This document shows positions 9,487 through 10,986 of a stretch of DNA of 41,827 nt, one piece after another. Under the pieces are notes generated by a model, which was not told the origin of the DNA, did not search any database, and was given only the letters and a program-made list of their open reading frames with translations. The translations under genes and the position numbers were made by a program. Every line of letters starts with the position of its first letter. Positions within the stretch are counted from its first letter, which is position 1. Source of the DNA: a virus; UHGV virus genome UHGV-0360402; one strand, 5' to 3'.

Positions 9487-10194
9487 CGGATAACCATAAC
9501 ATTTTGTCTGTGTTTTAATTGCCTCACGAAGCGCATCTAACATCTTGACTGCCACTTCATCATTCTCTGATGCAGATCCAGCAGGGAGATACTCCCCTTC
9601 AAGCGGAACCCGAGCAACAAGAGACAACGCTTCGGCGAATTGATCTTCATCAATTTCTTTGTACGAACAGCCAAAATGAGATTTCAGTGACGACCACATG
9701 GTGATCATCGCCTTAGCCTGTTTTTCTTTTGGCAGAGACTGACCGCGACTCATGACGAGTTGTTTAATGGCTTCCTGCTGTTCAGTGGTGATTTTACCCG
9801 GCAACGCCTTTTTAGCTTTGCGTGGGTTAACTACATGGCCTTTAGTCCAGTAATCGTAGAGCACATCGTCACACTCTTCCTGATACTGGATTACCTTGTC
9901 GCGGATTTCAGGGCGTACTTTGTTTGGACTGATGCTGTTCAACCAAGCTGCCAATTTTCGTAAAGCCATACAAATCATGGCTTGCACCCCACCGGCAGAA
10001 GGTATGGTGATTTCCACCATACCCTTCGAGAAGCGTTGAGAAATCTTCTTATGTTGAGATTTCCAGTCTAGCCCCATTCCCTCAACGATAGGTTTCATTG
10101 GGGTATACGGTTCACCGTTGTGATTGACAACATAAAGCTCTGCGCCGTGGAATGGCACGTTGATAGTAGATACCGCTGTTGCTATACTCGTCAT
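9256..10194 (-). CDS. Antirepressor (P22 Ant-like N-terminal region fused to shared C-terminal module; 312 aa)
   Basis: ATG 10194; downstream of Arc-like gene as in P22 immI; N-terminal pattern typical of phage antirepressor N-domains. Confidence 0.75.
   Translation of the reverse strand: MTSIATAVSTINVPFHGAELYVVNHNGEPYTPMKPIVEGMGLDWKSQHKKISQRFSKGMVEITIPSAGGVQAMICMALRKLAAWLNSISPNKVRPEIRDKVIQYQEECDDVLYDYWTKGHVVNPRKAKKALPGKITTEQQEAIKQLVMSRGQSLPKEKQAKAMITMWSSLKSHFGCSYKEIDEDQFAEALSLVARVPLEGEYLPAGSASENDEVAVKMLDALREAIKTQTKCYGYPLKPGYRSLIHSPSGVLGLTEHSLLMNLLNQLQEDGHDVSGAAAELTTMFCYIVGVSKCLRDIQTHAEYINDKAGFF
10160..10188 (+). promoter_or_regulatory. Near-consensus sigma70 promoter TTGATA-17-TATACT reading antisense into the ant 5' region
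   Basis: -35 at 10160-10165, -10 at 10183-10188; inside the first codons of ant on the opposite strand. Confidence 0.55.
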
Positions 10195-10269
10195 GTCGTT
10201 AATTCCTATACGTAGTTTTACGATACTGAAGCCCTGACGGTCTGGCCACCGTTGGGCTTCGCTGTTTTA
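10195..10269 (+). ncRNA. Candidate sar-like antisense RNA covering ant RBS and arc-ant intergenic region
   Basis: Promoter at 10160-10188; terminator hairpin 10228-10260 then GCTGTTTTA; layout mirrors P22 sar. Confidence 0.45.
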
Positions 10270-10434
10270 TGCCACGCTATTCTTCTCACCAGTGAGTCCA
10301 TACACTTTCCTCAGCTGATAGATAATCTCTGTATTGAACTTTCGGCATTCTTTTTCGCCATTTCTTTCAATAGCTAACTTCACATCGTCCGGAAAACGAA
10401 CTCGTCGTTGACACATCTCTTTTGCTTTTTGCAT
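10267..10434 (-). CDS. Arc-like ribbon-helix-helix repressor (55 aa)
   Basis: AAGGAG RBS 7 nt before ATG 10434; RFPDDVKLAIERNGEKECRKFNTEIIYQL fits Arc/Mnt RHH pattern; directly upstream of ant. Confidence 0.7.
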   Translation of the reverse strand: MQKAKEMCQRRVRFPDDVKLAIERNGEKECRKFNTEIIYQLRKVYGLTGEKNSVA

Positions 10435-10449
10435 TTCATATCTCCTTAG

Positions 10450-10508
10450 CCCCACGGTGGGGCAAAACAATTGTCACACCGTGCGTCATTGATGTCAAGC
10501 ACACGGTG
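10450..10508. promoter_or_regulatory. Divergent arc/mnt control region with CACGGTG-type palindromes
   Basis: 13-bp palindrome CCCCACGGTGGGG (10450-10462) overlapping arc RBS, plus inverted CACCGTG (10477) and CACGGTG (10502). Confidence 0.5.
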
Positions 10509-10554
10509 AGGCATACTTCAATCATTGCAAGTAACTCAATATTTGGTGAAGAAC

Positions 10555-10986
10555 ATGAGCAGAGAAGATCCACAACTAAGGATCAGACTTCCCGTTGAAG
10601 TAAAAGAAAAAATAGAAATTTCTGCAAAAGCCAATAAGCGATCAATGAACGCTGAAATAGTACAACGTCTTGACACCAGCTTTCTGAAAGATATTCATGA
10701 AGATGACGTAATTTCTGCTTATGAAGCAAAAATTATTGCAAACAATGCACGGCATGAAATATCAAATATTATTTTCAAAAGAACCTTTAATGAAATTAAT
10801 AAGAAAATAACACTTGGACATACAAGTTTTTATATAAACCTTAATGACCTTGAACTGGAATCACTTGCAGATAATGATTACCAGATCATCTTTGAAAAAA
10901 CATTTAATAAGCTCAATGAACTAGGTTACATCATCTGTGAAAACTCATGGGATGCAGATGGTTTTGGAATTGAAATACCTGAATAG
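10555..10986 (+). CDS. Mnt-like RHH regulator with extra about 95-aa C-terminal domain (143 aa)
   Basis: ATG 10555; LRIRLPVEVKEKIEISAKANKRSMNAEIVQRL matches Mnt RHH; divergent from arc-ant; AT-rich; Arg codons mostly AGA/AGG. Confidence 0.7.
   Translation: MSREDPQLRIRLPVEVKEKIEISAKANKRSMNAEIVQRLDTSFLKDIHEDDVISAYEAKIIANNARHEISNIIFKRTFNEINKKITLGHTSFYINLNDLELESLADNDYQIIFEKTFNKLNELGYIICENSWDADGFGIEIPE

Follow-up and report, generated by a model that had tools for sequence, protein, structure and literature searches.

An immI-like block in a phiV10-type prophage

The 41,827-nt viral genome UHGV-0360402 (hereafter, the window) carries, in its late region, two minus-strand genes, arc-like and ant, that diverge from a plus-strand mnt-like gene. 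The three open reading frames (ORFs) are all intact, and each has a Shine-Dalgarno sequence. We consider this region, at a probability of about 85%, to be a homologue of the immunity I (immI) cassette of phage P22, the textbook example of layered control by two repressors and an antisense RNA, present as an accessory block of the late region in a prophage of phiV10/TL-2011b type. Homology, motif positions, conservation and covariation form the basis of this reading, and from them we infer transcription, binding and regulatory logic. P22 immI (NC_002371, 14519-16035) is laid out as mnt, Pmnt/Pant with Omnt and Oarc, arc, sar and ant. The window has the same gene order on the same strands, in agreement with a preliminary description made from the sequence, which had noted the plus-strand Mnt-like gene and the minus-strand Arc-like and Ant genes and compared them to P22 immI. 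Further points of likeness are the N-terminal domain of Ant, an Mnt protein of ribbon-helix-helix (RHH) type with a probable Arc counterpart, a terminator after ant, and placement in the late region after ejection or internal protein genes.

The N-terminal domain of Ant belongs to PF10547 (P22_AR_N; E = 2.5e-45), and the protein is 40% identical to P22 Ant over 217 amino acids (aa). Relative to P22, the C-terminal domain is replaced; its ~85 aa are common to a second antirepressor encoded at 7736-8392. The Arc-like protein appears, weakly but consistently, similar in sequence to both P22 Arc and the N-terminus of the Mnt-like protein. It shares 33% identity with P22 Arc (BLASTP E = 4e-5, in a single comparison), matches the phrog_228 'Arc-like repressor' (E = 3e-5), and is 33% identical to the Mnt-like N-terminus (hhalign against the Mnt-like family, E = 1.9e-5, 78% probability); several members of its family are named 'Arc family' by NCBI. 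A PDB sequence search with the Arc-like protein placed TALE repeat proteins at the top; we rejected these as artefacts of scores summed over many sub-threshold repeats.

The Mnt-like protein contains a PF03869 Arc/Mnt RHH domain (E = 1.1e-14) and has P22 Mnt (1mnt) as its best PDB sequence match, at 32% identity in an alignment that spans all 83 Mnt residues. Its AlphaFold model (predicted local distance difference test score, pLDDT, 82) comprises two RHH helices (14-26 and 31-41), a long helix (55-87) that aligns with the tetramerisation region of Mnt, and a further domain (91-140). In a Foldseek search of the PDB, the N-terminus of the model matched Arc and AmrZ (probability 0.99 for the Arc-operator complex 1par), and the confidently modelled beta-alpha-beta-beta domain at 91-140 had no significant match. 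The protein thus departs from the Mnt architecture of a DNA-binding domain and a C-terminal tetramerisation helix only (83 aa), being 143 aa long with an extra C-terminal alpha/beta domain. The longer form is widespread: 260 clusters of 142-150 aa were found in Enterobacterales at E < 1e-5, and one long-Mnt cluster, named Yersinia pestis by NCBI, is present on 557 contigs.

The two repressors also resemble each other in the strand that would read DNA. The Mnt-like N-terminus MSREDPQLRIRLP is conserved in a 33-member family alignment, with one or two exceptions at three positions, and the Arc-like family has the N-terminal motif M-x-Q-(R/K)-(R/K)-(V/I)-R-F-P. When the families are aligned, both place Q, R/K and R (a Q-x-R/K-x-R strand) at the three reading positions, which we take, after Knight & Sauer (1989) and Raumann et al. 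(1994), both as cited in PMC3413123, to be the ones that contact bases. The residues are Q-R-R in both repressors of the window, as opposed to H-N-R in P22 Mnt and Q-N-R in P22 Arc.

The host is an Escherichia coli phiV10/epsilon15-like prophage (a Uetakevirus; P22, in contrast, is a Lederbergvirus), with structural genes 98.5% identical to those of phiV10 (Uetakevirus) and 98.6% identical to those of TL-2011b. TL-2011b has the block at 96-99% identity; phiV10 is without it and has a Bro-N gene and small ORFs at the same place. At least 80% of the block is present in 38 of 5426 complete E. coli genomes. In P22-like phages (epsilon34, CUS-3, HK620, Sf6 and others) an 'ant moron' has been described, a variable, independently expressed region extending from the last injection/ejection gene to the tailspike (Villafane et al., 2008; PMC2629481), which often carries ant with or without mnt/arc and is mosaic and in high flux (PMC2629481). 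The ant/sar 5' sequence of CUS-3 is 91-94% identical to that of the window. Because TL-2011b carries the block and phiV10 lacks it, the cassette behaves like an 'ant moron' in another podovirus lineage: descriptions of the moron come only from phages whose morphogenetic genes are of P22 type, whereas the block of the window is in a phiV10-type genome.

The RefSeq record of TL-2011b already labels an 'Arc-like repressor' and an 'anti-repressor Ant'; no RNA gene is annotated at the sar position in the RefSeq annotation of strain F11, and literature searches on immI/sar outside P22-like phages and on TL-2011b returned no description of the cassette. Nor did the searches turn up an account of the sar homologue, which is unannotated, of its phage lineage, or of the variant architecture of operators and promoters that goes with a longer Mnt. 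In other respects the cassette is essentially an ordinary immI copy, the variation consisting of three copies of one operator type in place of the two different operators of P22.

Table 1. Features of the immI-like block and related elements, in window coordinates.
Feature	Coordinates	Strand	Sequence or remarks
ant, antirepressor, 312 aa	9256-10194	-	start codon is the complement of 10192-10194
Terminator-like hairpin 3' of ant	9188-9205	-	consensus scan; same position as the annotated P22 ant terminator
arc-like gene, 55 aa	10267-10434	-	first gene of the ant operon; size and position fit an Arc repressor
mnt-like gene, 143 aa	10555-10986	+	diverges from arc-like; RHH domain, long helix, extra beta-alpha-beta-beta domain
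Psar-like promoter	10160-10188	+	TTGATA (10160-10165)-17-TATACT (10183-10188); TG at 10180-10181
sar-like antisense RNA, about 72-75 nt	10195-10268	+	ends inferred; Rfam and own covariance model
sar stem-loop I	10195-10224	+	anti-Shine-Dalgarno UUCCU (10203-10207) in loop
sar terminator hairpin	10228-10260	+	13 bp, GC-rich (G10228-C10260); U tract 10264-10268
Operator-like site 1	10448-10464, centre 10456		AGCCCCACGGTGGGGCA; about +1 to +16 of Pant
Operator-like site 2	10472-10488, centre 10480		TGTCACACCGTGCGTCA; in Pant spacer
Operator-like site 3	10497-10513, centre 10505		AAGCACACGGTGAGGCA; in Pmnt spacer
Pant-like promoter	10470-10498	-	TTGACA (10498-10493)-17-GACAAT (10475-10470); TG-extended; kept in related cassettes
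Putative Pmnt	10489-10517	+	TTGATG (10489-10494)-17-CATACT (10512-10517); read from sequence
TTACC-N5-GGTAA sites	7357, 7450, 8465, 26694, 29902, 33645, 33707, 36014, 36726, 36788		
Tailspike gene	3481-6132		
187-aa membrane-anchored ORF	11077-11640	+	P22 sieA position; phrog_8033, function unknown

A sar-like element opposite the ant leader

In P22, sar is an RNA of 68/69 nt; by pairing with the ant mRNA it stops translation of ant (PMC12197685, PMC2629481). By sequence, the window carries a sar homologue, the expression of which is a prediction only. The Rfam family RF00262 (sar) matches 10196-10263 on the plus strand across model positions 1-68 of 68, with 45.2 bits against a gathering score of 43; the TL-2011b element scores 44.8 bits and P22 sar 97.8. 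The window element has the same two helices at full length and is a borderline member of the family (45 versus 98 bits for P22). It is flanked by the ant ATG (10194) and the arc stop codon (10267-10269), and the complement of 10203-10207 reads AGGAA, 8 nt from the ant ATG. As in P22, a two-hairpin RNA of ~70 nt would extend to the arc stop codon. The preliminary description had predicted an RNA of about 75 nt that crosses the ant ribosome-binding site and ends at hairpin 10228-10260 and a U tract in the manner of P22 sar; the full-length RF00262 match upholds this in silico. The Rfam scan of 10160-10555 returned sar only, with no C4 or IsrK.

The promoter assignment comes from the alignment with P22, in which three elements are kept: TTGCTATACT as the extended -10, TCATGT with the ant ATG, and GAAGCCCTGAC...GGGCTTC in the stem of the terminator. 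The Psar-like promoter spans ant codons 3-10, with its -10 box inside codons 3-4. The identical TTGCTATACT lies in the first ant codons of P22, and the annotated P22 Psar has the same -10 box at the same spacing from the ATG. A start 7 nt past the -10 box would fall at G10195, one base beyond the ant ATG, again as in P22. The Pant and Psar start sites would be convergent and 268 bp apart (262 bp in P22). The antisense-directed TTGATA-17-TATACT promoter of the preliminary description is exact in its coordinates and aligns with P22 Psar at the sequence level. A consensus scan scores it at 10/12 plus the TG extension, and just one other site of equal quality occurs in 9100-11100, the minus-strand TTGACA-17-GACAAT at 10498-10470.

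Conservation of the -10 hexamer where the coding sequence changes is, in our reading of the sequences, more telling support than the covariation counts given below. Cassettes found through their Mnt-like or Arc-like proteins encode Ant proteins with unrelated N-termini (MANLA, MNIVQ, MNSLA, MNSVA and MNNVA), and a T-A-n-n-n-T hexamer (TAAATT, TACAAT, TAAACT, TACACT or TACATT; TATACT here) is found at a constant distance from the ATG, 6 nt from the start site. The arc-ant spacer is about 70-73 bp long across related cassettes. In the gene calls, the ant start of the cassette at locus L149 is probably placed too far upstream, so that the gene runs through the sar hairpin.

The RNA 10195-10269 folds at -23.7 kcal/mol (z = -2.8). 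On the plus strand, its terminator hairpin and the GCUGUUUUA that follows form the sole terminator-like site nearby; the minus strand lacks the U tract. Scanning viral contigs with a pattern baited on the -10/ATG motif, and hence biased toward it, yielded >120 loci with 70 distinct sar-like sequences. When 40 distinct stem-loop I variants were folded one by one, positions 1-5 paired in one helix in 39 of 40, versus 14% when the 3' part was shuffled; the variants comprise 11 different 5' arms and have the anti-Shine-Dalgarno UUCCU or CUCC in the loop. Additionally, a covariance model built from six sequences was used to align 36 elements, some of which had been found independently through proteins. 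In this alignment 97.3% of cells pair (85.4% in shuffles, 32-49% with partners slid) and 70 cells show double changes where 16.6 are expected, with compensatory changes at 5/5 stem-I pairs and 5/14 terminator pairs. Our model has a single match in the window, at 10195-10272. Per-sequence folding and covariance-model alignment replaced an earlier MAFFT/RNAalifold analysis of 33 sar-like sequences, which recovered only the terminator and misaligned the 3' arm of stem I.

The curated family is narrower than the natural one, since diverged elements of the same architecture fall below its threshold. At the gathering score RF00262 misses the elements at seven loci (L140, L145, L149, L031, L030, L080 and L119) in which promoter, anti-Shine-Dalgarno stem-loop and terminator are arranged alike; of those tested with our model, several (L145, L149, L140, L119 and L030) are detected at E < 0.002. 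L140 has a second sar-like match (1079-1157; 32 bits with our model) about 1 kb from the first on the same contig, which suggests two sar-controlled genes in that phage.

Could the element encode no RNA at all? The hexamers would then be a by-product of the N-terminal Ant codons (Ser-Ile-Ala), and the hairpin an arc-ant intercistronic structure or a module recombination boundary. TATACT does coincide with the conserved codons AGT ATA, promoter-like sites are counted at chance level, and the hairpin sits exactly where differing arc types meet differing ant types, a position at which the CUS-3 record annotates a 'boundary sequence'. Yet the -10 hexamer stays at the same distance from each of the five Ant starts listed above, every pair of stem I covaries, and the U tract follows the hairpin on one strand, the plus strand. 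Moreover, the P22 counterpart is annotated as promoter, RNA and terminator and has been described as a working antisense RNA (PMC12197685, PMC2629481). We consider the absence of an antisense RNA very unlikely.

Three operator-like sites at putative back-to-back promoters

The 120-bp intergenic region between arc-like and mnt-like contains three copies of one 17-bp element, with centres 24 and 25 bp apart. The sequences given in the preliminary description are present: CCCCACGGTGGGG at 10450-10462, CACCGTG at 10477-10483 and CACGGTG at 10502-10508. The exact motif CACSGTGNGNCA occurs only at 10453-10513 within the window. All three sites carry the CCACGGTGG core of the P22 Mnt operator. The central 9 bp are in common with P22 Omnt, AGGTCCACGGTGGACCT, which site 1 matches at 11 of 17 bases including CCACGGTGG. 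Site 1 also lies just downstream of the Pant -10 box, as Omnt does, its centre 14 bp from the box (15 bp for P22 Omnt). The CACnGTG palindromes are thus Mnt-operator-like in sequence, and site 1 is so in position as well, with binding predicted; the preliminary description had expected them to be bound by the Arc-like protein, which on this likeness is not the sole expectation. The Arc operator of P22 (21 bp, with TAGA half-sites) has no counterpart in 10435-10555, and the position of Oarc is occupied by site 2. Because the two repressors have the same Q, R/K, R reading strand, both are predicted to read the same family of sites.

The promoters are also wired differently from those of P22. Pant and Pmnt of the window stand back to back with overlapping -35 boxes, and those of P22 are coextensive within 90 bp; of the three Omnt-like sites of the window, one is at +1 of Pant and the spacers of Pant and Pmnt have one apiece, with no TAGA-type Arc operator. 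The -35 box of Pmnt overlaps that of Pant in the palindrome TTGATGTCAA, and its -10 reads CATAAT at the same place in most other cassettes. A plus-strand Pmnt coextensive with Pant in the P22 style (-35 near 10471, -10 near 10494) was considered and set aside, as its -10 would be GTCAAG; the conserved TTGATG-17-CATACT is preferred. A stretch in the loop-proximal part of the sar terminator, GGCCACCGTTGGGC at 10244-10258 (GGCCACCGTGGGGC in TL-2011b), is similar to the operator in its right half and core. As a fourth operator, its CCACCGT(T/G)GGGC is probably coincidental, the hairpin variant being found also beside unrelated arc genes (L057, L098).

Eight further loci keep the control layout while the remaining intergenic sequence diverges, which, as far as sequence comparison goes, makes the layout a phylogenetic footprint. 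They were reached via Mnt-like proteins 58-69% identical to that of the window, in protein clusters named Yersinia, Proteus, Enterobacter, Morganella, Raoultella and Citrobacter. They keep three sites at 24-26 bp spacing (consensus TGCCyCACsGTGkGGCA, with the central base free), a Pant of TTGACA and GACAnT, and a Pmnt of TTGnnG and CATAAT; sites 1 and 3 exchange sequence types between cassettes. The long Mnt, the three sites, a 55-58-aa Arc-like protein and the sar-like element occur together at L140, L145, L149, L153, L156, L157 and L159, and the antirepressors coupled to them there are of different families (P22_AR_N, Bro-N, or Bro-N with P22_AR_C). The related cassettes are located in the tail-gene regions of differing phages that bear a tape measure. 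A natural deletion is seen on comparing L160 with L159: it fuses site 1 to site 3 and leaves a control region of 80 bp versus 130 bp, removing both -35 boxes and site 2, apparently by recombination between direct repeats. L148, a degraded or low-quality copy, was left out.

How the two repressors use the three sites admits two readings. Under a P22-like division, to which we give somewhat less than even odds, the Arc-like protein would bind only site 2 and the Mnt-like protein only sites 1 and 3, with flanks and N-terminal arms setting two specificities under the shared CACnGTG. Of the three, site 2 varies least and has the least symmetry (TGaCgCAC-G-GTGtGaCA, identical in most cassettes), and sites 1 and 3 come close to a perfect palindrome, TGCCCCACsGTGGGGCA; the repressors differ in their N-terminal arms (MQKAKEMC and MSREDP), and the positions of sites 1 and 2 mirror those of Omnt and Oarc. 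Against these points stand the Q-x-R/K-x-R strand common to both proteins, the trading of sequence types between sites 1 and 3, the site 2 of L149 and L159, which has the form of the other sites, and the lack of a second conserved motif family in the region. We regard such a division and shared use of the sites as about equally likely.

A second palindrome family is present elsewhere in the island. The preliminary description had distinguished the CACnGTG sites from TTACC-GGTAA sites and proposed two repressor systems; both families are indeed there, which supports that proposal. The 15-bp TTACC-N5-GGTAA palindrome occurs 10 times in the window against 0.31 expected, and 3 copies are in the island. 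One copy, at 36014, lies between a 76-aa cro-like ORF (35699-35929, minus strand) and a 194-aa helix-turn-helix ORF (36084-36668, plus strand), and the TTACC-N5-GGTAA sites are probably operators of the main phage repressor.

Proposed regulation, neighbouring module and wider meaning

By homology with P22, the cassette would operate as follows. Pant, with a start site near 10463 on the minus strand, would transcribe arc-like and then ant, and the Ant protein would inactivate a prophage repressor. Within a lysogen, Pmnt, weak and divergent, would supply the Mnt-like repressor, which would sit on the 17-bp operators and keep Pant off; after infection, the Arc-like protein made from Pant would turn Pant off again. 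An RNA of ~73 nt would start at G10195 and end right beside the arc stop codon, at the hairpin with its U tract. As this RNA is fully complementary to the ant leader and presents an anti-Shine-Dalgarno in its first loop, we propose that it blocks translation of ant as P22 sar does, and, as in P22, it would be made mostly once Pant is repressed.

Several points weigh against this interpretation. The Arc-like protein has no Pfam match and fails the Pfam Arc model, a profile of 15 members of its family searched against the PDB gets no better than E ~0.1 for Arc, and AlphaFold models it poorly (pLDDT 59.7, as expected for the monomer of an obligate dimer with a shallow alignment), so that the model was not used for a fold search. 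The RF00262 score exceeds the threshold by ~2 bits, and stem I is weak in the window copy (about -3 kcal/mol, with one U-U mismatch). As the alignment was fitted to the structure it examines, the pair counts are supportive and not independent. The region contains 4 promoter-like sites against 3.7 expected by chance, so that Psar draws on homology and the scan by itself is no evidence; Pmnt scores 8/12 against the consensus, too low to pass the scan threshold. Both repressor families always co-occur with the sites, so that co-occurrence favours neither divided nor shared use of them. The literature searches found no transcript, footprint or reporter data for the element or TL-2011b.

That the cassette is an inactive remnant, its sequence kept only through recent descent, strikes us as the most improbable of the alternatives. 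Copies in E. coli and in viral contigs are for the most part 99-100% identical, so conservation within the species says little, and degraded or deleted copies do exist (L148, L160). The window copy, in contrast, retains its three ORFs with their Shine-Dalgarno sequences, its promoters, its operators and sar, and maintenance of the architecture across genera at 58-69% protein identity points to purifying selection on this type of cassette. We put forward more tentatively, as a rather unlikely idea, that the cassettes make up a widespread undescribed immI sub-family, of which the window copy would be the type example. Its paralogous RHH repressors would have converged on, or retained, one specificity, with one 17-bp site in three tandem copies replacing the separate Arc and Mnt operators; the dimeric Arc-like and oligomeric Mnt-like proteins would compete for the sites or hand them over, and the extra Mnt-like domain would provide a ligand or partner input that P22 Mnt is without. 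Members would carry the names Escherichia, Yersinia (including clusters that NCBI names Y. pestis), Proteus, Enterobacter, Morganella, Raoultella and Citrobacter.

The surroundings of the block agree in part with the preliminary description, which had placed it between ejection-protein genes and the tailspike. On one side it is near internal virion genes, being flanked by the 187-aa membrane ORF and a 1004-aa internal virion protein gene; on the other, ~3.1 kb separate ant from the tailspike, a stretch that holds a 146-aa ORF, the second antirepressor with isrK and C4 RNAs, and a 242-aa ORF. The 187-aa ORF is unrelated to SieA, whose position it holds (BLASTP E = 0.34), and was ruled out as a homologue.

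The second antirepressor module (7357-8392) lies 2.5 kb from the immI-like block. An isrK RNA (7501-7577; Rfam, 67.7 bits) and a C4 antisense RNA (7602-7686; 61.2 bits) stand directly upstream of an AntA-domain antirepressor (7736-8392), with TTACC-N5-GGTAA sites upstream of the RNAs at 7357 and 7450 and downstream of the module at 8465. Small-RNA control of antirepressors is known from the c4 antisense RNA-icd-ant system of P1/P7 and from IsrK-orf45-anrP of Gifsy-1 (PMC4825925, PMC12197685), and the module is an arrangement of the P1 c4/ant or Gifsy-1 IsrK/anrP type beside one of P22 type. These systems differ from immI in their unrelated RNAs, in the use of a processed trans/cis RNA on upstream target sites with translational coupling, and in having no Arc/Mnt repressors; the sar-like element of the window matches neither the C4 nor the IsrK family. 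A 258-bp inverted repeat, 96% complementary (8159-8416 and 9232-9489, 815 bp apart), encodes the near-identical C-terminal ~85 residues of both antirepressors and 24 bp beyond, and flanks the 146-aa ORF (8680-9120, phrog_5954) and a two-way terminator (9119-9135); it could permit inversion or exchange between the two ant genes. Elsewhere in the prophage is a tRNA gene (27031-27104; Rfam tRNA, 73.3 bits) with the anticodon loop CUUCUAA, probably tRNA-Arg UCU.

Our findings indicate that immI travels in one piece, sar included, to phage types that are unrelated, and that the curated sar family misses relatives. In about 38 complete E. coli genomes, and in phage TL-2011b, they predict a small RNA that is not annotated. 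The variant wiring, with one operator type used three times, promoters set back to back and a Mnt of greater length, lends itself to a natural comparison of the ways in which RHH paralogues divide or share their DNA targets. That a single prophage has two antirepressors under different kinds of control is relevant to prophage induction and to cross-talk in pathogenic E. coli.

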